Source: Candidatus Latescibacterota bacterium
GTDB lineage: Bacteria > Latescibacterota > UBA2968 > GCA-2709665
Assembly: GCA_965116875.1 (NCBI GenBank)
Contig: OZ220733.1
Location: 3,648,001 to 3,712,000, forward strand
Reading direction: 5' to 3'
DNA length: 64,000 nucleotides
Made by a program: the position numbers and the translations under genes. The notes under the pieces are model-generated. The model saw only the letters and a list, made by a program, of their open reading frames with translations. It was not told the DNA's origin and ran no database searches. Shown one piece after another: positions 4,403 to 64,000 of the stretch; within the stretch, counting starts at the first letter, position 1, and each line of letters begins with the position of its first letter.

Positions 4403-5197
4403 TCAAGCTCCCACGGCCTTTCTGACGCCTGACGCGATTTCGTCGTAACGCCTGGAGACAGGGGATTCGGGGTCGCCGGCCGTTATCGGGGCGCCGGTGT
4501 CACCAGCCCTGCGTATCCGCAGGTCCAGGGGGATTTCACCCAGAAGCGGCACGCCGTATTCGGAAGCCATCTTCGCGCCGCCGCCCTTGCCGAAGATATC
4601 TGTCCGGGTATTGCAGTTGCCGCAAATATACTCGCTCATGTTTTCAACGATGCCGATAACGGGAACCTCGACCGTGTTGAACATCCGGATGCCGCGACGC
4701 ACGTCCTCGAGTGCCACGGATTGGGGTGTTGTCACGATGACGGCGCCGTCGAGCCGGGCGGATTGAATCAGGGTGAGCTGGACGTCGCCCGTCCCGGGCG
4801 GGAGATCGATTACGAGAAAGTCCAGCGGCGCCCAGGAAACGTCCCTGAGGAATTGCATCACCATCTTGGCCAGCATGGGACCACGCCAGATCACCGGCGC
4901 TCCCGCTTCGGTGATGAACCCGAGCGAGATCATCTTGACGTTGTGACGTTCGAGGGGGAGGATCCCGCCATTCGCATCCATGTCGGGCGTTTCGTTCACA
5001 CCCATCATGATCGGAACGTTCGGGCCGTAGATGTCCGCGTCCATGAGGCCAACCGCGGCGCCCTGCCTGGCCAGCGCCACGCAGAGATTCGCGGCGGTGG
5101 TGGATTTCCCCACGCCTCCCTTGCCGCTGGCGACGGCGATCAGGCGCCGGACGCCCGGAATCGGCGCGGGTCGAGGTACGTTTTCAGGATTGTTCAT
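4403..5197 (-). CDS. apbC: Mrp/NBP35 family Fe-S cluster carrier ATPase
   Basis: SGKGGVGKST Walker A, DADIYGPN, WRGPM, DLPPGTGD, ENMS and CxxC. Confidence 0.93.
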   Translation of the reverse strand: MNNPENVPRPAPIPGVRRLIAVASGKGGVGKSTTAANLCVALARQGAAVGLMDADIYGPNVPIMMGVNETPDMDANGGILPLERHNVKMISLGFITEAGAPVIWRGPMLAKMVMQFLRDVSWAPLDFLVIDLPPGTGDVQLTLIQSARLDGAVIVTTPQSVALEDVRRGIRMFNTVEVPVIGIVENMSEYICGNCNTRTDIFGKGGGAKMASEYGVPLLGEIPLDLRIRRAGDTGAPITAGDPESPVSRRYDEIASGVRKAVGA

Positions 5198-5233
5198 TGC
5201 GGTGCTTCCCCAGGCGGTTCGTGAGTGCCGCGT

Positions 5234-6358
5234 TCAATCGGACATCTTCAGGCTGTTGCGAACGCAATCGGCCAGGATGGGTACCCCTTCCCGGATATCG
5301 TGGTGCGTCGCATATCCGAAGGCGAGCCTGATGTACGGAACATCCATATTGGATACGTGGAAGGCCTTGCCGGTGGCATAGTCAATACCCATTGACTCCG
5401 CGAGTTGCTCACAGGCCGCGGTGTCGGTGGCGTCGGGCAACTTGACCCAGATAAAGAGACCGCCCTTCGGTCGGCTGAACCACTCGAACGCATCGGGAAA
5501 ACGCGAGAGCATCTCGAACATCAGATCGCGTTTCTTCCTGACGATGGCATTGATTCTGTCCACGTGCGACCAGAGTTCCTCTCTGAAATACTCGCAGACG
5601 ACGGCCGCGCTGAGCGCGCTTGTTCCTCCGTCGCGCCGATATTGAAGAATCCGGTCGAGTAGATCTCGAGGCGCCGCCAGGTAGCCAAGACGGATTCCCG
5701 GCCCCAGAATCTTGGACAGGGATTCTATGTGAATTACCGGCGTATCGTGCTCGAGGGTCCAGAGGGCGGGTTCGTGATGGTCTTCGTAGACGGTGTCGGC
5801 GTAGCAATGATCTTCAACCACCGGTATGGCGTAACGGCCCGCGATATCCAGCAGTTCGCGGCGCCGGCCGAGCGGCATGATCGAACCCGTAGGGTTCTGA
5901 TAGGTTGCCAGGGTATAGATGAATTTCGGTATTCTGTTCCCGGACGCAAGCCGGGCCAGCGTTTCTTCCAGGGCGTCCATTCGCATGCCGTGGTCGTCCA
6001 GCGGGACGCCGACGAGTTCTGCCTTCTCCTTGCGGTACGCGCTCAGCGTGCCCGAATAGGAGAATTCCTCGAGCACAATCACGTCGCCGGGCGACTCGAC
6101 CAGGACCTGGGCGACCAGCGTAACCGCCTGCATGGACCCGGTGGTGAGCGCAATCCGGTCGACGGGCAGGGCAACGCCCTCCCGGTGGGCGAACCTCCGG
6201 GACATGAGCTTTCGGAGCGGTTCGTATCCCAGCGAACCGGGATAGCACGCCAGCTCATCGCCCAGTTCCGGCAGAATGCGCATTGCGGCTTCGGCCAGAC
6301 CTCTGTTTGGAAAGGAGGCCGGGTCGGGACGGCCGCTACCAAAGGGGTATGTCTTCAC
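5234..6358 (-). CDS. PLP-dependent class I/II aminotransferase (LysN/ARO8-like)
   Basis: YQNPTG, VEDHCY, SLSKILGPGIRLG (PLP lysine), PKGGLFIW. Confidence 0.88.
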   Translation of the reverse strand: MKTYPFGSGRPDPASFPNRGLAEAAMRILPELGDELACYPGSLGYEPLRKLMSRRFAHREGVALPVDRIALTTGSMQAVTLVAQVLVESPGDVIVLEEFSYSGTLSAYRKEKAELVGVPLDDHGMRMDALEETLARLASGNRIPKFIYTLATYQNPTGSIMPLGRRRELLDIAGRYAIPVVEDHCYADTVYEDHHEPALWTLEHDTPVIHIESLSKILGPGIRLGYLAAPRDLLDRILQYRRDGGTSALSAAVVCEYFREELWSHVDRINAIVRKKRDLMFEMLSRFPDAFEWFSRPKGGLFIWVKLPDATDTAACEQLAESMGIDYATGKAFHVSNMDVPYIRLAFGYATHHDIREGVPILADCVRNSLKMSD

Positions 6359-6364
6359 AGCGCT

Positions 6365-7993
6365 TCAGATCCCTCTCTCCTTGCCCCGTATTCTGGGGTC
6401 GAGCGTAGCGAGGAGTTCGTCGTCTTCCGTGATTTCAATGGCTCGGACATTGGCCGCCGCACTCCCCTTGCCCAGCGCGTATTTGATCTCCGACTTCAGG
6501 TATTGGGGCGCTATTTCACCAAATCCTTCTTCGACCGTGACCCATTCGTTGCCTTCGGAGTGTACTCTGGGCGCGCTGACCGCCCAGTCGAGGTCCTCGT
6601 CCAGTATCAGTCGCCGTGTGAGTACCTGAAACAGGGAGGACGGGATACGGGTGCCGCCCGATGCGCCGAGGGTCATTACGGGCTCTCCGTCGCTCATGAT
6701 GAGAATGGGGCACATGTTGTTGATGGGCGACTTGCCCGCGTCGACCGAGTTGGGCAGCCCGGAACCGGGATCGAAGCGGGACATGCCGGCGTTCATGATG
6801 AGTCCCATCCTGGGAATGGTCACATACGAGCCGAAACCGGGGCCGTGGGTCAGGGTCAGGGAAGCCATATTGCGGTCGCGGTCCACAACGGAGACGTGGG
6901 TGGTTCCGCCGTAGGAGAGCGGGCGCAGCAACGCCTGCCCGCGCGTACCCTCCGACACATGATCTGCGATTTCGCGGCCCGTTGCTCCGATCTGGATTTC
7001 GGAGGTAAGGGTTTCCAGCGGTACCTTGACGAATCGGGGGTCGCCGAAATACCTGTACCGGTCCAGCCAGGCTGCGCGGATGGTTTCGGTCAGCCCGTGG
7101 GCGAGACGGGCGGCGTCGCGGGCCCAGAGATCCAGTTCAGCGACTTCGGCGATGCGACACATCTGAAGCACGGAAGGGCCGCTGGTACAGAGGGGTGGGG
7201 TGTACAGGTCGTAACCGAGAAACGAGGCGTGGACGGGTTCGACGTGGCGGGCCTGATAGTCCGCGAAGTCTTCTTCCGTGAGTATTCCGCCGTTCTCCCG
7301 AACGTGTTTCACGATTCTCCCGGCGATCCTTCCCCGGTAGAATTCATCGACTCCGTTCTTTGCGACCTGCTCGAGGATCCGACCCAGGCTCGCATTGGCC
7401 GCCCGATCTCTGGTTGTGGGCGCCCCATCGTCGACCAGCAGCAGCCGTTCCGTGTCCCGGTATGTGCGGATCCGCCTTTCGTTCGCTCCCACGGCGCTGG
7501 CGTAATCGGGTGAAACCCGAAATCCGTTCTTGCAAGCGCGTATGGCCGGAACAAGCGCCTGATCCAGCGGCATTTTTCCGTATTTCTCGATCGCCGCGGC
7601 CAGCCCGGCGAGTACGCCGGGAACGGAAATCGCGAGACAGCCCGTCTCGTTGGCCCTGCCGCTGACCAGCGACCCGAAACGTCCGTCTGAGCGGACCACC
7701 TGGAACATCCTGCTCGTGGCGGCCCCCGGCGCGACGGTGTTGAAGTCGATGCAACCGATTTCCCCGTTCATGCAAACCATCAGGGAGCCGCCGTAACCGC
7801 CGACGCCCGTGTGGTGCGGCGTCACCACGCAGGCGAGCAGGGCGGCCGTGACGGCTGCATCGACGGCATTGCCTCCCTTTTTCAATACGTTGACGGCTGC
7901 GGCGTCGGCTTCGGGCTGACCGACGACCGCGGCCTCCTGGAACGTGGCTGACACGTAAAGCGGCCCTCCTTCGAACGCTCGAAATTTACGCAA
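6365..7993 (-). CDS. ggt: Gamma-glutamyltransferase family (Ntn hydrolase)
   Basis: LKKGGNAVDAAV, GVGGYGG, VPG, TTHVSVVD nucleophile Thr, GASGGTRI, APRVH. Confidence 0.9.
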   Translation of the reverse strand: MRKFRAFEGGPLYVSATFQEAAVVGQPEADAAAVNVLKKGGNAVDAAVTAALLACVVTPHHTGVGGYGGSLMVCMNGEIGCIDFNTVAPGAATSRMFQVVRSDGRFGSLVSGRANETGCLAISVPGVLAGLAAAIEKYGKMPLDQALVPAIRACKNGFRVSPDYASAVGANERRIRTYRDTERLLLVDDGAPTTRDRAANASLGRILEQVAKNGVDEFYRGRIAGRIVKHVRENGGILTEEDFADYQARHVEPVHASFLGYDLYTPPLCTSGPSVLQMCRIAEVAELDLWARDAARLAHGLTETIRAAWLDRYRYFGDPRFVKVPLETLTSEIQIGATGREIADHVSEGTRGQALLRPLSYGGTTHVSVVDRDRNMASLTLTHGPGFGSYVTIPRMGLIMNAGMSRFDPGSGLPNSVDAGKSPINNMCPILIMSDGEPVMTLGASGGTRIPSSLFQVLTRRLILDEDLDWAVSAPRVHSEGNEWVTVEEGFGEIAPQYLKSEIKYALGKGSAAANVRAIEITEDDELLATLDPRIRGKERGI

Positions 7994-53631: not shown

Positions 53632-53930
53632 CTATTGCGATCCGGCGCTGACAACGGGTTGCGTCGACTCGTGCGAGCAGAGGACGACCAGCAGATTGCT
53701 GACCATGTTCGCCCTCTGTGCTTCGTTCAACTTGATCACCTCGTCGTCCATCAGTCGCTTCAGGGCCATCTCCACCATGCCGACGGCGCCGTCGACGATC
53801 TTCGCCCTCGCTGAAATGACCGCCTCGGCCTGCTGGCGCTGCAGCATGGCGTTGGCGATTTCCGGTGCGTAGGCCAGGTGGTTGATTCGCGCCTCGTCGA
53901 TCTCCACACCGGCTTTCTGAACGGTGAGCA
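53632..53930 (-). pseudogene. 3' fragment of an SPFH/band-7 protein gene
   Basis: [29 protein letters not shown]...[10 protein letters not shown] is a typical SPFH C-terminus; the N-terminal part is missing. Confidence 0.75.
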
Positions 53931-53941
53931 TGGGAACCACG

Positions 53942-55168
53942 ATGTCTGAAGTCGTCTCGCTTGTTGATCGGATCGAAGCGGTCCCCGTTGTCGCAACGGG
54001 CGTACGATGGTCGGCGATGCGCGAAGGAAGGGCGTCCGACGACTATTTCGCTCGTTTTCCCGAGTGCAGGACCGACCCGCTGAGGAACGACTACGGCAAC
54101 GCGCGCGCCTTCCCGGAACCGTTCGCGAGGGGCGGCGGGCTCTTTCCCGTACTTCTGAAGATGGCGGACGGGACGCTTTGCTGCGCAACGCGGACCGGTT
54201 CACGTCACGCCGGAAGCGGGGGCGAAATCAGCCTTTCGTTCTCCTTGGATCGTGGCGAGAACTGGACGGACTATCGCACGGCAGTTCGGGGAGATCCGGA
54301 TGGAGATATCGACGTGCGGAACCCGGCGCTCGGCCAGGCGGCCGACGGCGACCTCATTCTGGCCTACGGGGTGATGCGCGGGATCGACGTCCGGGGACGC
54401 ATATCGACGTCCGATCCCTATGAATCGATCCAGGTGATCCGTTCGGCCGATGGCGGGGCGACGTGGTCCGATCCCGGGACAGTCCCGTTCCCCGAAGAGG
54501 ATCTCCTGCTCCACCCTCATGGACAGATGCGATGTCTTTCGGACGGGACCCTGGTATTCAACGCGCGGGGGTTCTACACGAAAAAGGCTTACAACGAAAG
54601 ACCGGGCCTTCCGGCGAGGATGAGCTACCTCTACCGGTCGCGTGACGGCGGAAGGACCTGGTCGGAGACAACCCTCGTCAAATCAGGCGGGAGCGAGACA
54701 GGATTCCTGGCCCTGAACGAAGCACACTGGCTCGCGTACGTCCGATTCAACGACGGACCGAATCGGATCGCCCACTCGGTTGACGGCGGGAAGTCCTGGT
54801 CGCGGTGGGAGACGTCCGAACCGGAATCCGAAGAACACGGCGCACGGACGAAAGGTAAGTCATGGGCCGCCTCGCCGGGCAGTATCGCCACGTTGCCGAA
54901 CGGCAATGTGCTGATCACGTACGGGTACCGCGCGTATCCCTTCGGCGTGCGCGCCATTGTAAGCCGAGATGGCGGCAACACCTTCGACGCGAATCGGGAG
55001 TACATCATCAGCGACACGGCCTACCATCCGGACTGCGGGTATCCGAGTACCGTGTGCTTCGAGGACGGTACCATCGTAACGGCCGCGTATTCGCTGATGG
55101 ACGTCGCGCATCCGGAGTGGGGCACGTGCTGCATCGCCTACCGGTATCCGCAGAAGAACTTCGACTGA
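53942..55168 (+). CDS. Sialidase-family (BNR/Asp-box) protein
   Basis: Five Asp boxes ([40 protein letters not shown]) and DCGYPS. Confidence 0.85.
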
Positions 55169-55392
55169 AGCGGTGAGACGGTAGAGGTGAGACGGTAGAA
55201 GAAGCCCTTGCCCGCCTATTCTTCCGACTTGCCTGCGGCATAAAAAGAATCCCGTTTCGGCACCCGATCTCTCCCGTCTTCCTTCTCACCAGGTGGTGAG
55301 GCGGGATGTGTTCCTCTCCCCGCTTCTGAGGGGCCGGGGAGAGGTTACGGCACCGTCAGTTCGTCTGTTGGACCATTCCAGGAGCCGATTTC

Positions 55393-56130
55393 ATGCTGAC
55401 GCAGATCTCTTCTTCCGTATACTGCTGGTCGGAAACCCACGGAGCCGCCAGGAATGAGCCCTATCCGTGGAACAGCTTTGTTATCCGGACAAATCACGGG
55501 GACGACCTGGTCCTTGTCGATCCGCTTCCGCTCTCGGCCGAAGAAGAGAGGGAGATCGAAGCCCTGGGCGACCCCGCGCATATACTTCTGACCTGCGAGT
55601 ACCACCTGCGCGAGTCGGTAGCATTCAGGAAACGATGGGGTTGTGACATTCGCATTCACGCGGCCGGATCGGAATATTCCGAAGCGATGATCGACAAGAC
55701 GTTTCGGGACGGAGACCTGCTGTCGGACCGGATTGAAGTCATCCACATTCCGGATGCCTACCATATCGATGAGGTCGCGTTTCTGGTGCGGGGAGACGGG
55801 AATACGATGATCGTGGGAGATGCGGTCTGCGGAGGCCGTAAGGATCGAGGCATACCGGACGGTGAAATCTGGATCAACGCACCCGAATACGTCGTTGCCG
55901 ATCTGTCATGCGCTCGAGATTCGCTGCGCAAGCTCACTGTTCATTCATTCGAAAGGATGGCTTTCGGACACGGATCGCCGATCCTGCGCGCCGCCGGCGA
56001 CCGGTTCACGGCATTCCTGGAAGATGATGAGGCCTGGGCCACACTGGAATCCGAGAAGGCCGAAAGAACGAACCCCGCCTCCCTGGAATTCATTCGTGAG
56101 ATGCAAGCGAGGAAAACGCGTGGCAGGTAG
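55393..56130 (+). CDS. MBL-fold protein with degenerate metal motif
   Basis: VLVDP, ILLTCEYHLR, IVGDA, FGHG. Confidence 0.7.
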   Translation: MLTQISSSVYCWSETHGAARNEPYPWNSFVIRTNHGDDLVLVDPLPLSAEEEREIEALGDPAHILLTCEYHLRESVAFRKRWGCDIRIHAAGSEYSEAMIDKTFRDGDLLSDRIEVIHIPDAYHIDEVAFLVRGDGNTMIVGDAVCGGRKDRGIPDGEIWINAPEYVVADLSCARDSLRKLTVHSFERMAFGHGSPILRAAGDRFTAFLEDDEAWATLESEKAERTNPASLEFIREMQARKTRGR

Positions 56131-56261
56131 GGCCGTAAGCGGGTAGGGGAGAGAAGTCCCCTGAATGCGGTGAGACGCATGACGTAGAGGTTAGAGATGA
56201 CCCGCCTCATTTCGTTTCAATTTATGCCGGAGGTATAGAGGAGGAACAGATCGGCAAAGAT

Positions 56262-56336
56262 CTCTTCTCCCGTCTACCCTCTCCCGTCTCCCCGTCTTTA
56301 GGCTTTTTATCCTGCCCATCCTGTCCATCCATGTAA
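56262..56336. repeat. CTCCCGT-type short repeats plus an ATCCTG-type copy
   Basis: TCTCCCGTCTACCCTCTCCCGTCTCCCCGTCT then TTATCCTGCCCATCCTGTCCATCCATGTAA; related units near 47650, 55175 and 55270. Confidence 0.6.
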
Positions 56337-56382
56337 GTTATGTACGTAGAGATGTATTGAGGGACATAAAGGAGGTTTCATC

Positions 56383-56778
56383 ATGCCGCATGACAGCAAC
56401 TTGAGCCTTTCGGTGATCGGACAGATTTCCGTAACCGTCCAGGACCTCGACCGGGCCGTGGCTTTTTACCGTGACAAGCTTGGAATGCAGTTCCTGTTTC
56501 GCGTGCCGGGAATGGCTTTCTTCAATTGTTCGGGCGTACGGCTTCTGCTGGGGCTATCGGAAGATGGATCGGCGGACGTGCATGCCTCGGTCCTCTATTA
56601 CAAGGTGGAAGATCTCGAAGGCACGTGCGAGGAACTGCGTTCGCGCGGCGTCGAATTCGAAATTGGGCCTCACAAGATCGCCGATATGCCCGATCACGAA
56701 CTGTGGATGGCGTTCTTCAGGGACTCCGAGACGAATCTGATGGCGCTCATGGCCGAGAAGCCGAGAGGTAAGCAATAG
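56383..56778 (+). CDS. VOC family (glyoxalase/bleomycin resistance) protein
   Basis: QISVTVQDLDRAVAFYRDKLG, MAFFRDSETN; AAGGAGG RBS. Confidence 0.92.
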   Translation: MPHDSNLSLSVIGQISVTVQDLDRAVAFYRDKLGMQFLFRVPGMAFFNCSGVRLLLGLSEDGSADVHASVLYYKVEDLEGTCEELRSRGVEFEIGPHKIADMPDHELWMAFFRDSETNLMALMAEKPRGKQ

Positions 56779-56805
56779 GCGCCGCACGCCGGATGGAGCA
56801 GGCCG

Positions 56806-57258
56806 ATGGAAGAACTCGAAGAACTGTCGTTTTCACTTCGCTGCATCATCGACAGGCCCGTGGCTGAAGTCTTCGCGGCCGTCACGGACGGGTCCGCGAT
56901 CAGTACCTACTTCACGGACGATGCGAGTGCAGGTTTGGAAGCCGGTCGAACGGTCATCTGGCGATTCGGCGACATCGAGGTGGACGTCGCGGTGGAGGAG
57001 GTGATCCGCAACCGGAGAGTCGTCTGCAACTGGCCCGCTTCCAACGACGTCGGCTACAGGACCCGCTTCACGTTCGAATTCGAAGCACTGAAAGGCGGCA
57101 CGGGGATTTCGGTGAGTGAATCCGGATGGCGGCCGGATCGGGAGGGGATCGACAGCGCGTTCGATCAGTGCTCCGGCTGGACGCACTTCTTCGCGAGTCT
57201 CAAGGCGAGGCTTGAATACGACGTGGACATGAAGCGCTTCTACGACGACGAGGCTTGA
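56806..57258 (+). CDS. SRPBCC (AHSA1-like) domain protein
   Basis: IDRPVAEVFAA, ESGW, GWTHFFASLKARLE. Confidence 0.88.
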   Translation: MEELEELSFSLRCIIDRPVAEVFAAVTDGSAISTYFTDDASAGLEAGRTVIWRFGDIEVDVAVEEVIRNRRVVCNWPASNDVGYRTRFTFEFEALKGGTGISVSESGWRPDREGIDSAFDQCSGWTHFFASLKARLEYDVDMKRFYDDEA

Positions 57259-57517: not shown

Positions 57518-58018
57518 TTAAGCGTTATCTTCATCCTGCCCGGGAGGGGGATCCGCCGGGCCTGAGGCTCTCCGCAGACCGCGCCAGATCGAATAGATCA
57601 GCATCGGAATGCCGACCAGGATCAGGAATGGAACCAGCGCGTAGATGACCACCAAGTGGGGTCCCAGCAAGCCCCCAGCGAGACTGAACAGGACCGCGAG
57701 CGGCGTTGCGATCGCCAATCCGACCAGGATCCAGACCCGGGGGGTGCCGCTGACGCCCCTCAACAGCCGCTGCGCGAGCAATCCGATCAACGCGCCGGCG
57801 ATAAAGAACAGAACCAGGCCGGACAGGATGCTCGGAAGCGCATAGAGCAAGCCGAACGGGTGGGGGTGATGCATCGTACCGAAACGAATCCCGGCCACCA
57901 GCACCTGAAGAATGCACAGCCCCAGGCCGAACCACACCGGCAGTTTCCAATAATCCCATGAGCGGCGATTTGGCGCTTCCGGTTGACCGGTAGCGGAAGC
58001 TTCATCGGTGGGTTCCAT
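57518..58018 (-). CDS. Hypothetical membrane protein (4 TM)
   Basis: Four hydrophobic segments; GGGGAG RBS. Confidence 0.7.
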   Translation of the reverse strand: MEPTDEASATGQPEAPNRRSWDYWKLPVWFGLGLCILQVLVAGIRFGTMHHPHPFGLLYALPSILSGLVLFFIAGALIGLLAQRLLRGVSGTPRVWILVGLAIATPLAVLFSLAGGLLGPHLVVIYALVPFLILVGIPMLIYSIWRGLRRASGPADPPPGQDEDNA

Positions 58019-58151
58019 TGTGATCTCCCCTCTACCTGCTATCTATGCTAATACAGAAAGTCAAAATACGTGCAGTGATCGGATTCGCTCTCAAATGCGT
58101 AGTGCCATTTTTGCTTTTGTTAACGGGTGCAGTAAATAGCTGACATCAATT

Positions 58152-58322
58152 GTGCATGCTACGGTGGACAGGAACTTGCCCAAATGGGGCGCTGAGGATG
58201 CTTGCATTGAGCTTGTCGAAATGTCGAAGCGCCCGCGTTTCTGCACGCTTTTTCCTTCGCCGACCCTTCGACAAGCTCAGGGAGCGGCTCAGGTTGGCCG
58301 GTCAATGTGGTGGCAAAAAGGT
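58152..58322. repeat. ~170-bp palindromic element, copy 2 (inverted)
   Basis: CCCTTCGACAAGCTCAGGGAGCGGCTC and TGAGCTTGTCGAAATGTCGAA match 26640-26812. Confidence 0.75.
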
Positions 58323-58674
58323 GAACTATCTGGTGCTCCTCAGAATGATAATTCACAAAACCGTTTCGTTCCATCAACGCCTTCATTAGCGGACGGTTGC
58401 GATTTTCTGTTCCATAATCCGGGAATCCGTTGCAATTCGTGAACCTTTGACCGCATAAATGCGCCTTGCAGGGTAGAGGAAAGGCGATCTCGTTGACATT
58501 GTGTGACAGGCCACAGGTACAATTTTCGCAACGTTTGAAGTGAATTCACTGCTGTCCAAGAACCGTTGGATTCTCAGAGAAGAGGATCGAAGAGTGGCTT
58601 CAATTCGCGGTCTTGTACGGGTTTGATTCGGATAGTGGAAACCAGGTTGCCATCGGTCGATGTTTGTTGTAACG

Positions 58675-58895
58675 CATGTCATTCTGAGCGCGCTGGCCTC
58701 CTCAGGATGACATGTTTTGCGAAGGTGTGGGCTCAGTGTTTTGCCAATCGTTATCGCAAGACATATCAATCACAGCGCAGCGAAGAATCTCCCGTATTCT
58801 CGATTGTACGTGTCGCATTTGGTCTTTGTGGATGAACTTGTGCGCGGACACGTAAACTGCCTTTTGCCCTCCTCAGGATGACAGTCTTCGCAAAA
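58675..58895. repeat. GTCATTCTGAG/CTCAGGATGAC palindromic repeats
   Basis: Hairpin CATGTCATTCTGAG...CTCAGGATGACATG at 58675-58714, AGCGCAGCGAAGAATCT near 58774, second CCTCCTCAGGATGACA near 58869. Confidence 0.65.
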
Positions 58896-59035
58896 GCAGG
58901 ACCGACTCGTTCCGCCAATGGCTGTGGACGATCTTCCAGCCATTTCATTCGCATATTTTCGCCGTATATCTAATCCGTTTTTGGACAGGTGTGAAGTGAT
59001 TTGAAGTTTCTCAAGGTCATCCGGGAGAGAAAGCC

Positions 59036-59857
59036 ATGATACTCGAAGACGAAGCGTTAACAAAACATCCGTTTCTGCCGACAAGGCCCGACGTCACCAT
59101 ACTCGAAAGTTCTGAAAAGATAGACGAGATCGATTGCCGGGAGTTGCAGTGGTGGCTCGCCATTCCGGAACTGGGCGAACACTGCCTTTGGGCAGCCTAT
59201 GAGTCCGACACGCTGGCGTTAACCGCGGTCGTCGAGATTGTGTCCACTGTTCCTGCGACGATCCGGAACATCGACTGCGTCGAACTCCGATTGAGAGAAT
59301 GGTTGGCTCGGGACGATTGGCCGGCGGACTTTAACCCCGGGCTCATGTACGCACTGCTGGACGAACGGCAGGCGAGGTGGCTTTCCGTCGTCAAGACTCG
59401 ACATGGAAGACGCGTTTTTGAAACCGTGGGGGATAAATGGTTTGAGGAGAACTGGGGGGGAAAGATGAGCCGCCGAATCGTTGATGACGGTCGCTACCGG
59501 CGCCAACCCGATGGCTCGTATAAAACTGGCAACGGTACAGGGATCGGCGCAGGCACCTACGACGTCACGATCGGAAGCAATACGTTCTGCTGTCTCCGTG
59601 TTCTGGACGCCGACCTTTCTACGCCGAACGGCGGCGAACTTGTGGAAGCATTCATTGAACGCGAAGGGCGGACCGTATTCTTTAGACGGTACGACGGGAG
59701 GTTTTTCCGCGACGGGGACCTGATCGCCAGGTATCCGGATAATCGCCGAATCGTCATCAACGACATAGTGTATGTGCATCATGACTGCACCGGGCGAGCT
59801 CACGACACGATCACGCAATTTGCTTTACAACCTGTTCGCTCGCAGGTATGCCAGTGA
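59036..59857 (+). CDS. Hypothetical protein, stand-alone paralogue of the adjacent ECF C-terminal domain
   Basis: GGGAGAG RBS; colinear similarity with the C-terminal part of the next ORF. Confidence 0.8.
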   Translation: MILEDEALTKHPFLPTRPDVTILESSEKIDEIDCRELQWWLAIPELGEHCLWAAYESDTLALTAVVEIVSTVPATIRNIDCVELRLREWLARDDWPADFNPGLMYALLDERQARWLSVVKTRHGRRVFETVGDKWFEENWGGKMSRRIVDDGRYRRQPDGSYKTGNGTGIGAGTYDVTIGSNTFCCLRVLDADLSTPNGGELVEAFIEREGRTVFFRRYDGRFFRDGDLIARYPDNRRIVINDIVYVHHDCTGRAHDTITQFALQPVRSQVCQ

Positions 59858-59898
59858 CTTCGGTTGAAATGCATCGCACATATTGCAACGGTTTCCGA

Positions 59899-61299
59899 AT
59901 GACAGATATACACGACCAACAATTGGCCAGGCAGATCCTGAAGGGTAACGAGGCCGCCTTCGTTATACTGGTCCGACGCTACGAGCGCGTGATTGCTGCG
60001 TTGATCCGTTCCCGGATCGGTTCCGGCGAACAGGTGCAGGACGTGATGCAGGAAACCATGGTCCACGCCTGGCGCGGCCTGCGCAGGGAGACGCCCCGCA
60101 ACGTGCGTCCGTGGCTGCTGCAGGTGGCACGCAACCGCTGCCAAGATTACTTCAGATCGCCCCAGCGCCGCGAACTGTACGTCGGGACCGAAGTCCTGAC
60201 ACCGCTGGTCAACCGCAGCGGGCTCGCGCAGTCACGGGAGCGGGAGGCCGCCACGGCGATCCTGGAAGCCATGGACGAAGTGCCCGATCGCGAGCGCGCC
60301 GCCCTGAAGGCGTTTTATCTGGACGGTCTGAGCATCGCCGAAATCGCCGCTCGTTACCGCAGTCCCCACGGCACGGTCAAACGCCGTCTTTCGCACGGCC
60401 GCGACCGTATCCGAATGGCATTGGGAATCACCCCAACGAAGAGGAAGATCGTCATGAACGCAAGACAACAAGACTTTCCGCGACTTCGACCCGAGATTCG
60501 GATTTACCCCAGCGCGGAGAAACCCTTCCGTATCGATTTCAAGGAAATGGCCTGGTGGTTTGTAAAGCCGGAAGTCGGCGATCGGGTCGGCCGTGGTTAT
60601 TACGACGGGGAAAAGGACGGCTGCGCGCCCTGGCGTCTGACCGAAACGGTCTGGCTGACCGCCCGCCGGCCGGCGGTGATCCACGGACGAACCTGTGTCG
60701 AAGTGGATGTCGAGGAGGTGGAGGTCGAGAAGATGAGGTTCCGGAAGAAGCCACTCGAGGAGAGGAGCCGCATTAAACGGGTATGGGGATGTTTGTCTGA
60801 TGACGAGGTGGAGTGGATCGCCGTGGAATCGCAAGAGGCCGACGGCGTAAGAGAACTGGAGACCTTTCTGGACGACAGATTCCACGACGACTGGTGGGGC
60901 TCAAGGCGCATCGTCGAGGACTGCGGATTCTTGTCCGAACGGGCCGATGGCACCTGGGTCAGAGGGCCGGATGCCCCCGCCTTCACAGGCGCCGGCGTGT
61001 TCGACGTCCACGTCGGGGGGCGTCAGTTCACCTGTCTGCGGGTCTTTGACCTCGATAAAAACGCCACAGAGCGAGAGGTTCTGGTTGAGGCCTATATCAC
61101 TCGCGCGGGACGCACAGTCCTGTTCCGCCGCTACAATGGGAGCCGCTGGGGCAAGAGCGACGCCCCGCCGCACAACTGGGGCGAAGCGATGACGTGGGAA
61201 GAGGAACTGCCCGAAAACGACCGCATCGTCATCGACGGGCTGACTTACGTGCACTTTTACGACATCCTGTCGGCGGCGGCCTGCGGAATCGCCGATTGA
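59899..61299 (+). CDS. ECF sigma factor with long C-terminal extension
   Basis: Sigma2 QDVMQETMVHAW...WLLQVARNRCQDYFR; sigma4 FYLDGLSIAEIA...GTVKRRLSHGR; about 280 further residues. Confidence 0.9.
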   Translation: MTDIHDQQLARQILKGNEAAFVILVRRYERVIAALIRSRIGSGEQVQDVMQETMVHAWRGLRRETPRNVRPWLLQVARNRCQDYFRSPQRRELYVGTEVLTPLVNRSGLAQSREREAATAILEAMDEVPDRERAALKAFYLDGLSIAEIAARYRSPHGTVKRRLSHGRDRIRMALGITPTKRKIVMNARQQDFPRLRPEIRIYPSAEKPFRIDFKEMAWWFVKPEVGDRVGRGYYDGEKDGCAPWRLTETVWLTARRPAVIHGRTCVEVDVEEVEVEKMRFRKKPLEERSRIKRVWGCLSDDEVEWIAVESQEADGVRELETFLDDRFHDDWWGSRRIVEDCGFLSERADGTWVRGPDAPAFTGAGVFDVHVGGRQFTCLRVFDLDKNATEREVLVEAYITRAGRTVLFRRYNGSRWGKSDAPPHNWGEAMTWEEELPENDRIVIDGLTYVHFYDILSAAACGIAD

Positions 61300-61326
61300 C
61301 GGTCGCATTGCACGGACGATGACCGA

Positions 61327-61902
61327 CTATCGCACCCGGCGGTAGCTCATGGTGTGCGCCATCGTCTCCTTGCCGTTCTCGTACATCGTCCAGGTCTGCG
61401 ACATCCCGTCCGCCCCGTCGAATGCGATCGAGACCGAATGCATGTGCGACTCGTCAGGGGAATCGAGAGAGCCATCGACCAGTTCTAACGCAATCACTCC
61501 GTCGGTGGATTCTGCCAGACTCATCTGCGGCTGATTACCCTTCGCGCAGTAGTGGGTCATCCAGAGCTTGCCGCCCCGGTCGTGGTACACGGAGATCATC
61601 TCCTTCGGCGTGTCCGGGAAGTTGCGCTCGACGATGACGCTGCCGTTGGCCGCCATCCGGTACTCCGTTGCAACCGTAATCATCGCGGCCTTCCCGCCTT
61701 CAGACCCCCCGCCACCTGGCATCGGCATTTCGGATTCCCAACGCCCGACCAGCGATTTCAATCGCTCAAACTCCGCCGAGCCCACGTATGCTCCGGCATG
61801 TTTCTCTGCTTTTTCTTCCGGTTTGCCCCCGTCATTCCCCGCGAAAACCGAAAAAGCGAAAACTGCACACAGTACGGGCAGAAAAATCGACGTTCTTTTC
61901 AT
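61327..61902 (-). CDS. Hypothetical exported protein
   Basis: Signal peptide; FERLKSLVGRW, MTHYCAKGNQP, HMH; AAAGGAG RBS. Confidence 0.75.
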   Translation of the reverse strand: MKRTSIFLPVLCAVFAFSVFAGNDGGKPEEKAEKHAGAYVGSAEFERLKSLVGRWESEMPMPGGGGSEGGKAAMITVATEYRMAANGSVIVERNFPDTPKEMISVYHDRGGKLWMTHYCAKGNQPQMSLAESTDGVIALELVDGSLDSPDESHMHSVSIAFDGADGMSQTWTMYENGKETMAHTMSYRRVR

Positions 61903-62086
61903 GCGGACGGCTCCTTTCCATTGTCGGTCCCGAATCCTCCCTTGAAGATCCGTAGTTGATTCAACATAACTCCTGCATCTTACGAAAATGCAAATATTCC
62001 ATTTGCCTCTGAAGCTGCTGATTTGTCAACGGGCAATCTCGGCCGCAAATTTACCTGCTCCCGATGTCGTGCGCAATACGCAATAA

Positions 62087-62847
62087 CATCCACAAGAAAA
62101 CGCATCAGGCGAAAACAGACTCACCGAGGGATTCAAAGAGCTAATTTACCTGGAAGCCCATCCCCATCCTGTCTTTGACGCCGATACAATAGATGTCCGT
62201 GTTGGTTTTTGGCCACTCTCTGAATTCGATTCGGTATTAGCCGAACAAGTCGATTCAGCATTGTCGAGACAGGCATCGATCAGCGATCCCGCGCAGCAGA
62301 TTTATTCGCTAAGACTTGACGTATTTCGTCCTCCGCCCTCGGATCGCCTGGTTTTCTCGAGCCAAATACCCTTTCAAAGTTCGCCGATGAGGTTTACCAT
62401 TCCAACCGCTGGATTTGAGGGTGTCTATATCGCACGGCCCCGCGTTATCGACCCTTCCGGAAAGGTACACCATATCTGGTACTCGACGGAGGTGGAGGGC
62501 GAGAAGCCGTACGCTCCAACTATTTATCTGGGAATTCATCCTGGCCGCGACTATATGTTTGGGATCTACACTATTACGAAAATCGCATATACGTCGGTGG
62601 TGGCGATTGGGACAAGAATCAGGGGCCAGTTGACATCTGGTCATTTTCGTCAGATCAAAATGGTTCAGCGCATCGACTCCAAAAGGAAATAACGGTTGAT
62701 GACGAGTCAGTGGATCGTTTCCGGACGTGCGCCGGACGGCTGGTAGTGCCGGGAATTGATGCCACGGAATCCTGGAAATATGGCAATATCCACATAAAAG
62801 AGCGTGGGAGATGGTACAAGCAAAGGACTCTGCCTACGTGCCAATGA
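62087..62847 (+). pseudogene. Frameshifted remnant of a beta-rich protein gene
   Basis: Frame is open from 62087 with no convincing start; removing 2 nt at TATAT (62552-62556) gives PGRDYVWDLHYYENRIYVGGGDWDKNQGP...; stop at 62845-62847. Confidence 0.5.
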
Positions 62848-63063: not shown

Positions 63064-64000
63064 GGAATCTCTGATTAAGTTGCCAATTGATTATGTGGGT
63101 ATGAAGTCGTATATAAAGGATAAGGATGTCCGCGTGTTGTGATTTGTGATGGATCAACATAGAACGAGGTGCCCAGCGATGAAACAAATGAGTTTTTCGG
63201 ATCTGTCGTATAGAACGAAGAAGAAGCAGACGCGCAGAGAACGATTTCTGGAAGAGATGGATGCGGTGTTGCCGTGGGAGATTCTGCTTAAACCCATTGA
63301 GAGGAAGTATCCGAAACCTGGAAACGGTCGTCGTCCGATAGGCGCGGAGGTGATGCTGAGGATCTACTTCATGCAGCAATGGTATGGGTTGAGCGATCCG
63401 GGTATGGAGGACAGTCTGTATGACGTGGAATCGATGCGCCGTTTCGCCGGTGTGGACATCAACGGGGTGCCCGATGAGACGACGATCTGCAAGTTCCGGC
63501 ACTTTCTGGAGGGGCATGGTCTGACCGAAGCCTTGTTTGAGCAGGCGAAGCGGTATCTGTCGGGGCGGGGCATGATCGTCAGTGAAGGCACGATTGTGGA
63601 CGCCACGATCATTCATGCGCCATCGTCGACGAAGAACCGGGAACGCAAGCGGGACCCCGAGATGAAGAGCACGAAGAAGGGCAACACCTGGCATTTCGGC
63701 ATGAAGGCGCACGTGGGCGCCGATGTGAAGGGGCGGGTGCACAGTATGGTCACCACCGCCGCTTCGGTGCATGACTCGCAGGTGATGGACGCGTGCCTGC
63801 ATGGAAAGGAGCAGACGATCTACGGCGACAAGGCCTATGCGGACCAGACGCGAAAGGAACAGGCCGAATCCAATGACATCGAATGGCGGGTGCTTCGCAA
63901 GGCCCGCCGTGGCAAGCGTCTCAACTGCGCGGACCTGTCGTTCAACAAGAAGAGCAATCGCACACGCGCACGGGTCGAACATCCCTTTGGCGTGATCAAG
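63064..64000 (+). mobile_element. IS5 family insertion sequence (right end outside window)
   Basis: Probable left IR GGAATCTCTGATTAA preceded by GTAA; transposase follows. Confidence 0.85.
63179..64000 (+). CDS. IS5 family transposase (partial)
   Basis: MKQMSFSD...TRRERFLEEMDAVLPW, MLRIYFMQQWYGLSD, PDETTI, VDATII, FGMKAHVG, YGDKAY, RARVEHPF. Confidence 0.96.
   Translation, partial: MKQMSFSDLSYRTKKKQTRRERFLEEMDAVLPWEILLKPIERKYPKPGNGRRPIGAEVMLRIYFMQQWYGLSDPGMEDSLYDVESMRRFAGVDINGVPDETTICKFRHFLEGHGLTEALFEQAKRYLSGRGMIVSEGTIVDATIIHAPSSTKNRERKRDPEMKSTKKGNTWHFGMKAHVGADVKGRVHSMVTTAASVHDSQVMDACLHGKEQTIYGDKAYADQTRKEQAESNDIEWRVLRKARRGKRLNCADLSFNKKSNRTRARVEHPFGVIK

Follow-up and report, generated by a model that had tools for sequence, protein, structure and literature searches.

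An ECF sigma factor with a probable built-in all-beta regulator, and an unfused relative of that domain inserted behind its candidate promoter in a Latescibacterota genome

Why should a gene for a stress-type sigma factor of the extracytoplasmic function (ECF) class with a large C-terminal extension follow closely on a gene for a free protein of the same domain family? This arrangement occurs in a 64,000-nt stretch of contig OZ220733.1 from an uncultured, sponge-associated Candidatus Latescibacterota bacterium (the window), in which open reading frame (ORF) A encodes the free protein P0001 and ORF B encodes the sigma factor P0002, whose C-terminal part is referred to here as the extension. The initial annotation had proposed a two-gene switch in which the fused domain senses a ligand and a free copy serves as a decoy, partner or effector. 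The explanation that we consider probable as a whole is that P0002 is a self-regulated ECF sigma factor and that P0001, a distant relative of its extension, has been inserted as an induced output.

BLASTP aligned residues 10–248 of P0001 with residues 207–469 of P0002 in one colinear alignment with 88/269 identities (33%; E 2e-30 as a single comparison), and this alignment includes every motif pair on which the initial annotation had based its claim of colinearity. Its view that the extension is an undescribed domain, resembling neither the SnoaL-like nor the TPR type, also held: no Pfam or NCBIfam model, SnoaL and TPR included, matched P0001 or the extension at E up to 1, no Pfam family is common to 35 aligned family members, and the free and split domain proteins are named only 'hypothetical protein' in public sources. 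An exhaustive HMMER search with P0001 (E ≤1e-3) gave 238 clusters at 50% identity. The domain is about 265 aa long and occurs in sediment, gut and sponge-symbiont data; free proteins of about 255–285 aa and fused proteins of about 415–470 aa, with the domain at about 195–450, are both common. It is carried by 45 of the 168 genomes of the window's phylum, including all 14 other genomes of the genus. The near relatives are labelled Candidatus Latescibacterota, some of them Gemmatimonadota, and all are metagenome-assembled genomes (MAGs). The window's own genome holds three copies, namely P0001, P0002 and a distantly related second fused gene at 5.38 Mb (C1:5377948-5381113). The latter, which most resembles P0191 and shares about 34% identity with P0002, is interrupted by ~1.86 kb of inserted DNA that divides it into an N-part (5377948-5378316) and a C-part (5380181-5381113); an ORF on the opposite strand of the insertion reads as transposase-like.

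The N-terminal half of P0002 matches Sigma70_r2 (PF04542) at residues 41–107 with E 1.2e-14 and Sigma70_r4_2 (PF08281) at residues 137–187 with E 2e-10, and it scores 75.8 bits against the NCBIfam sigma70-ECF superfamily model TIGR02937, for which the cut-off is 42.9. The closest solved chain to this core is E. coli sigma-E (1or7, E 2.1e-15), with SigW and SigL also among the nearest. The first ~190 residues are an ordinary ECF (group 4) sigma core, with regions 2 and 4 and no region 3. Fused extensions have been described for ECF41 (SnoaL-like, e.g., M. tuberculosis SigJ), ECF42 (TPR) and ECF238 (Cys-rich, CorE/CorE2) in PMC7826278 and PMC8999054. Like these proteins, P0002 combines a sigma2-sigma4 core with a soluble C-terminal domain and a conserved autoregulatory promoter, and lacks a canonical anti-sigma gene; unlike them, it has an extension of about 265 aa that belongs to no Pfam family, is all-beta by the model of P0001, and is also found as a coupled +1 gene and as an orphan clade. 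The SnoaL-like extension of about 120–150 aa that defines ECF41, ECF56, ECF294, ECF295 and ECF205, the TPR-rich extension of about 200 aa in ECF42, and the DUF1835-containing extension of about 350 aa in ECF264 each found no match in P0002 at Pfam E up to 1. Nor does the 265-aa extension have the Cys-rich tail of the short extensions of ECF238, ECF287 and ECF288. ECF33 (EcfQ-type) shares an identical -35 element, TGAACCTTT, with the genes studied here. However, this group is described with a -10 element containing 'AC' and a zinc-finger anti-sigma factor with one transmembrane segment at +1 (PMC7826278), whereas the -10 here is CGCCTT or CGTC and no membrane anti-sigma factor is encoded at P0002 +1. 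None of the extension groups described in PMC7826278 (main text and incompletely visible supplementary text) and PMC8999054 fits P0002, and a full-text literature search returned no paper linking an ECF sigma factor with Poribacteria or with a LolA-like protein. P0002 would represent an undescribed ECF family, a conclusion that we regard as well supported jointly with the regulatory role of the domain and the autoregulated promoter discussed below.

Domain and sigma-core profiles were built from the family and applied to the ORFs of retrieved loci. Searches with patterns derived from sigma-associated free forms retrieved 80 metagenome loci, of which 46 were fused and 26 had a family sigma ORF immediately upstream of the domain gene; of the remaining eight, five lacked upstream sequence, one had a sigma gene 350 nt upstream and two had no sigma gene within 3.5 kb. 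Thus, in 72/75 loci with upstream context the domain is fused to this ECF clade or is its +1 gene. The 26 split junctions are mostly 4-nt overlaps, ATGA or GTGA, which identifies them as translationally coupled gene pairs and not sequencing frameshifts. The split form is also present in the isolates Bacillus niameyensis and Lederbergia, in which a 194-aa sigma factor is followed by a domain protein of about 255–261 aa. No second free copy was found nearby at any of the 46 fused loci of the metagenome set. Because it is either fused to one ECF clade or encoded by an overlapping +1 gene, we read the ~265-aa domain as the dedicated, cognate cytoplasmic regulator of its ECF sigma factor, with the same measure of confidence as the explanation as a whole; the initial annotation had likewise considered the domain soluble and tied to the sigma factor.

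The sigma gene is preceded by a motif that fits positive autoregulation, which is usual for ECF sigma factors. In genus members without P0001, the sigma ATG comes directly after a conserved block, GTGAACCTTT...CGCCTTGCAGGGTAGAGGA...ATG, with which positions 58441–58467 of the window align. The window carries GAACCTTT-N13-CGCCTT at this site, and this is the sole strict match in the 5.45-Mb genome (0 per Mb in shuffles). A -35/-10 pair of the same type (GAACCTTT, 12–16 nt, then CGCCTT or CGTC) precedes fused and split sigma genes in Latescibacterota, Poribacteria, Brocadiaceae, Pseudomonadales and Bacillaceae loci, and the motif was found within 170 nt in 23/58 metagenome loci as compared with 0/58 shuffles. 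A relaxed form of the motif gave 27 matches in the genome versus 2–6 per Mb in shuffles, which is no enrichment, and five relatives had 1–3 strict matches per genome versus 1–3 for a reversed control. Two genus members, G052 (C1:3492974) and G054 (C1:5032593), contain a mutually similar second motif site, GAACCTTTGACC...GGTAGGTCGCCT, which could be a real target and is not present in the window's genome. RNA-library contigs from a relative 95–97% like the window cover 58475–58639, part of P0001, the junction at 59810–60029 and the extension. These are Logan contigs of one sponge metatranscriptome (0.05 share of words), the single RNA run containing part of the window, which carries the label sponge metagenome. 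One of the contigs starts at about 58474–58475, a weak hint only. The contigs as a whole are weak evidence, as DNA may occur in metatranscriptome libraries and contigs cannot prove a transcript, and the stretches that they leave uncovered carry no information.

P0001 occupies a position between this promoter motif and the sigma gene. By blastn synteny and alignment of the upstream regions, about 1.4 kb (58481–59895) is extra in the window relative to the genus members G045, G053, G058 and G052; in G053, the positions matching window 58480 and 59896 are just 9 nt apart. The insertion parts the sigma ATG from its former AGAGGA Shine-Dalgarno sequence. In the four other pair-bearing genomes of the genus the motif lies ~115–140 nt upstream of the free gene, and P0001 is therefore the first gene behind the sigma factor's promoter. 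Because it is downstream of the sigma factor's own ECF-type promoter, P0001 plausibly forms one regulatory unit with P0002. The homologues of P0002 measure 460–472 aa, and in the relative G055 the 17-codon leader that begins at 59848 is interrupted by a stop codon, so the start of P0002 is most likely the ATG at 59899. Read from this codon, the P0001 stop and P0002 do not overlap and are separated by 41 nt, and a consensus terminator scan detected no terminator-like site between the two genes. The part of the insertion that is common to P0001-like genes elsewhere, as judged from a second copy in G047 and from G136 of another family, extends from 58989 to 59872; these copies in other contexts have no promoter motif. 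The remainder includes inverted repeats resembling repetitive extragenic palindromic (REP) elements, GTCATTCTGAG...CTCAGGATGAC and ...CAGCGAAGAATCTC, which are peculiar to the window; the 11-mer GTCATTCTGAG occurs 27 times in the genome. The same repeat stretch shows extra contig depth in DNA runs.

The P0001-P0002 pair is present in 5/15 genus genomes (G000, G047, G048, G054 and G055). The P0001 gene is intact and under purifying selection: the pairwise ratio of nonsynonymous to synonymous substitution rates (dN/dS) is 0.12–0.40 for P0001 and its orthologues and 0.18–0.28 for the fused gene. The divergence at synonymous sites (dS) between loci L048 and L052 is 0.057 for the sigma gene versus 0.353 for the free gene, a discordance that points to exchange of the cassette between lineages.

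P0001 is not a recent offshoot of the extension next to which it lies. In a maximum-likelihood tree of 131 domain sequences, on which stars mark supported branches, P0001 falls in a starred clade (support 99) of 27 rows, 27/27 of them unfused, which spans Latescibacterota, Poribacteria, Pseudomonadota, Chloroflexota, Planctomycetota, Actinomycetota and Armatimonadota. The extension of P0002 groups far from this clade, with 17 rows under its own starred branch, 13 of them fused. The P0001 clade has its own conserved set of residues, C34, T59, E201, an inserted C-T-G, and H256. Genes about 60% identical to P0001 are present at roughly 50 Poribacteria loci, and a sigma gene lies within 5 kb of just one of them (L076, ~1.8 kb upstream). 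In 43/80 loci, an association recorded for the Poribacteria loci L055-L106 and L114, the 5 kb to either side of the P0001-like gene include a same-strand gene for a PhyH-like dioxygenase (~274 aa; PF05721, E 3.2e-7). The window's genome has a 40%-identical homologue of this dioxygenase gene at a remote site, C1:4223528-4224283. In a genome of the same family but another genus (G060, locus L066), a P0001-like gene (4920–5789) lies 124 nt upstream of a sigma-TPR fusion (5913–7361) that is ECF42-like and has TPR matches; the promoter motif is absent there, and the G060 genome contains no fused member of the family. The description of P0001 as a free copy of the extension, in the sense of a local paralogue, was thus mistaken, since its clade is distant, all unfused, and usually found in genomes without a fused sigma gene. 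The two-gene switch built on it survives in part: P0001 is downstream of the sigma factor's promoter, but it is no local paralogue, its clade is usually sigma-less and its distribution is patchy.

A second, independent pairing was found in Poribacteria, which together with the genus distribution answers the concern that the pairing might be unique to one genome. In 5 of the 151 Poribacteria genomes sampled (G172, G183, G192, G283 and G190), a fused gene is followed 0.3–1.2 kb downstream by a free paralogue, and in 5/5 cases the free paralogue has its own GAACCTTT...CGCCT motif ~80–100 nt upstream. The fused and free members of the G172 pair (locus L121), the sole such pair on the tree, fall together in one starred clade of 4 rows. 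With the Latescibacterota insertion and these Poribacteria pairs, a free copy of the regulatory fold has been placed under this promoter type at least two times, by different routes.

An AlphaFold2 model of P0001, built from a 35-sequence alignment, is confident and all-beta, with a predicted local distance difference test score (pLDDT) of 91.2 and a predicted template modeling score (pTM) of 0.89; DSSP assigns strands along the whole chain and no more than four helices, each 4 residues long. The class I anti-sigma domain, a helical bundle that wraps sigma2 and sigma4, is not present in this model of P0001. The Foldseek comparison called for by the initial annotation placed YmcC-like and LolA-like proteins in its top rows, with template modeling (TM) scores of only ~0.3, and gave no match in the PDB at E ≤1e-3; PDB sequence searches with P0001 and with a family profile returned nothing below E 0.16. 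The LolA-like superfamily (LolA, LolB, RseB, LppX, VioE, EPDR and YmcC-like proteins) consists of unclosed antiparallel beta half-barrels with a hydrophobic cavity, and the weak resemblance of the P0001 model to this fold hints at a hydrophobic small molecule as ligand. A far-reaching extension of this idea, which we regard as unlikely, is that the half-barrel domain, as an intracellular counterpart of RseB, represents a novel class of sigma regulators that respond to a hydrophobic ligand in the cytoplasm and bind the sigma factor in cis or in trans. The extra free copy under the sigma factor's promoter, acquired at least twice independently (in Latescibacterota when a diverged orphan was inserted, in Poribacteria when the gene was duplicated in tandem along with the promoter), would then form a ligand-buffer or decoy feedback loop, a recurrent design among ECF systems.

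The explanation that we favor is more limited. P0002 would be a self-contained cytoplasmic signalling protein whose all-beta C-terminal domain is its own regulator. Because the domain comes either fused to the core or from a translationally coupled gene immediately downstream, its most likely binding site is the sigma2/sigma4 core, whose activity we infer it to block or tune as long as no cytoplasmic ligand is bound. The sigma factor would drive its own promoter, GAACCTTT-N13-CGCCTT. P0001 would represent an old, diverged clade of the same fold whose members are never fused and normally function in the absence of such a sigma factor, and the ~1.4-kb insertion would have made it the first gene of the sigma operon and, besides the sigma gene itself, the only visible output of the promoter. 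In this position P0001 may now be produced under the control of the sigma factor and bind the same ligand or one related to it, providing feedback as a buffer or effector; we advance this last role tentatively, as something short of an even chance.

Several observations weigh against the favored explanation. The motif was found at just the 23 of 58 metagenome loci given above. The strict motif yields no further target in the window's genome, so that nothing outside the operon can be named as part of the regulon. Within the genus the cassette is patchy, its distribution entailing 4 changes on a 14-row sigma-gene tree, at least 3 of which are forced by starred branches. In the genus member G056, all that is left is a decayed P0001-like fragment interrupted by stop codons (C2:1599589-1600151), and the 4 kb searched there contained no fused sigma gene; together with the patchiness, this fragment argues that the cassette is dispensable. 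The orphan P0001-like genes of the Poribacteria loci have no promoter motif. Among 86 Poribacteria genomes with the domain, out of the 151 sampled, 70 hold one complete unfused copy as their only family member (also 4/4 in a separate check), indicating that proteins of the P0001 clade do not need this sigma factor. Finally, the P0001 clade does not share the conservation seen at ~10 positions of the sigma-associated members, and the residue pattern specific to this clade argues for a different ligand or partner.

Some of these same observations would be expected if P0001 were a hitch-hiker, a stand-alone protein with a sigma-independent job whose landing in the operon was a neutral or mildly disruptive accident. 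The 70/86 Poribacteria genomes in which a P0001-like gene is the only family member, the same-strand PhyH-like gene in 43/80 loci, the motif-less copies elsewhere in G047 and G136, the patchy distribution with its discordant dS values, and the loss of contact between the sigma ATG and its former Shine-Dalgarno sequence are all consistent with such an accident. It does not readily account for an insertion placed exactly between promoter and start codon, for a frame kept intact under purifying selection in five species-level genomes, for the free paralogues that Poribacteria independently evolved under the same promoter type, or for G060, in which a P0001-like gene is again directly upstream of an extended ECF gene. 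We therefore consider a hitch-hiker possible but doubtful.

It seems rather unlikely that P0001 regulates the sigma factor in trans, as a decoy, anti-sigma competitor or heterodimer partner exerting negative feedback on active sigma factor. The free domain of the split systems must act in trans, P0001 is itself under the sigma factor's promoter, and the close paralogues of Poribacteria with their own promoter fit an inducible feedback. P0001, however, is just 33% identical to the extension, its clade lives without this sigma factor, and it does not have the residues conserved in sigma-associated members.

We see only a small chance that catalysis, and not sensing, is the main function of the domain, VioE being an example of an enzyme with the LolA-like fold; the fusion would then couple transcription to substrate turnover and P0001 would be the catalytic paralogue. 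The conserved Cys/His/Asp set of the P0001 clade (C34, C251, H256 and D257) would suit such a role, as would neighbors that encode enzymes acting on small molecules. Besides the PhyH-like genes of Poribacteria, these comprise genes of antibiotic-modifying type, namely GNAT and streptomycin adenylyltransferase (ANT(6)) genes beside the P0001-clade gene of a Latescibacterota MAG (L101, 3309–4824), and methyltransferase, AadA-like nucleotidyltransferase and APH-like kinase genes beside that of a Caldilinea MAG (L107, 4144–7942). These neighbors vary between phyla, though, no catalytic motif was found in the domain and no family was matched, and the structural scores are too weak for transfer of function. 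The notion that P0001 is a decayed duplicate of the sigma gene minus its sigma half, for which only adjacency and C-terminal homology speak, is refuted by the absence of a sigma remnant upstream (six-frame scan of 58000–59040 with the sigma profile, best E 0.22 with a negative score), by the dN/dS values, by its place in an all-free clade far from the P0002 extension, and by the fact that the gene is an insertion relative to genus members.

The favored explanation, a sigma factor regulated by its own soluble domain, can also be set beside systems with a separate regulator. RseB and MucB are LolA-like periplasmic regulators of the sigma-E/AlgU pathway and act on the anti-sigma factors RseA and MucA; they are not known to act on the sigma factor itself. 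Unlike them, the family described here is cytoplasmic, and it has no sequence similarity to RseB or MucB. ChrR-type soluble anti-sigma factors (cupin-like, ECF11) resemble the split form in that a cytoplasmic partner gene overlaps the 3' side of the sigma gene (PMC7826278). In contrast to these, the P0001 model has no helical anti-sigma domain, and there is no zinc-finger motif and no cupin match.

Table 1. Features of the P0001-P0002 locus (positions are those of the window)
Feature	Positions	Strand	Description and basis
P0001	59036-59857	+	273-aa free all-beta protein of the same domain family as the P0002 extension; exclusively unfused clade
P0002 as given by the ORF finder	59848-61299	+	483 aa
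P0002 from its probable true start	59899-61299	+	ECF sigma factor fused to the domain, 466 aa
Sigma-70 regions 2 and 4	59968-60408	+	P0002 residues 41-107 and 137-187 (483-aa reading); Pfam PF04542, PF08281
C-terminal extension homologous to P0001	60466-61254	+	P0002 residues 207-469 (483-aa reading); BLASTP and family searches
Candidate ECF-type promoter motif GAACCTTTGACCGCATAAATGCGCCTT (-35 GAACCTTT, -10 CGCCTT)	58441-58467	+	Genus alignment, motif scans
Insertion of ~1.4 kb between the promoter/Shine-Dalgarno block and the sigma start codon	58481-59895		Relative to genus members without P0001
REP-like inverted repeats, 440 bp	58550-58989		Synteny breaks and sequence; not in the four other pair-bearing genomes

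The genes around the pair offer few further clues. The gene at the +1 position of P0002 is convergent, and beyond the genus no neighbor gene is conserved around the fused gene; a 191-aa secreted-looking protein and a 166-aa membrane-type protein are encoded in its neighborhood with synteny confined to the genus. The 166-aa protein, encoded divergently at 57518–58018 (-), matches no Pfam family and is hydrophobic by eye, so the earlier statement that no membrane anti-sigma gene is adjacent holds for the +1 position and is less secure for the divergent side. Farther upstream, a same-strand run (53924–57258) contains BNR/sialidase-like, metallo-beta-lactamase-fold, glyoxalase/bleomycin-resistance-type and AHSA1/SRPBCC genes, again with synteny within the genus only. 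An Rfam scan of 57900–62300 gave nothing close to the gathering score; the sole match (23 bits versus 97, on both strands) coincides with a palindromic element at 58207–58280, GAGCTTGTCGAA...TTCGACAAGCTC, which is probably another repeat. Near the end of the window, at 63146–64000 (+), lies a DDE transposase gene (DDE_Tnp_1 and DUF772) that continues past the window end. P0001, P0002 and both flanking genes matched no defence family in PADLOC at E up to 0.01, and tblastn with P0001 found no match in a plasmid collection.

Among sigma factors, ECF proteins with fused extensions are regarded as the equivalent of one-component systems, and few extension types have a known mechanism. The family described here adds a sizeable and wholly unannotated extension type. 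As the domain occurs naturally in fused, split and orphan form, its mechanism can be tested directly, and a split pair is present in the named isolate Bacillus niameyensis. The well-defined promoter, with one strict site per genome here, would suit orthogonal-sigma engineering. In the sister species of the genus, the same promoter and sigma factor occur with and without the inserted free paralogue, a natural experiment in which the recruitment of an output or feedback gene by a regulatory module can be followed.

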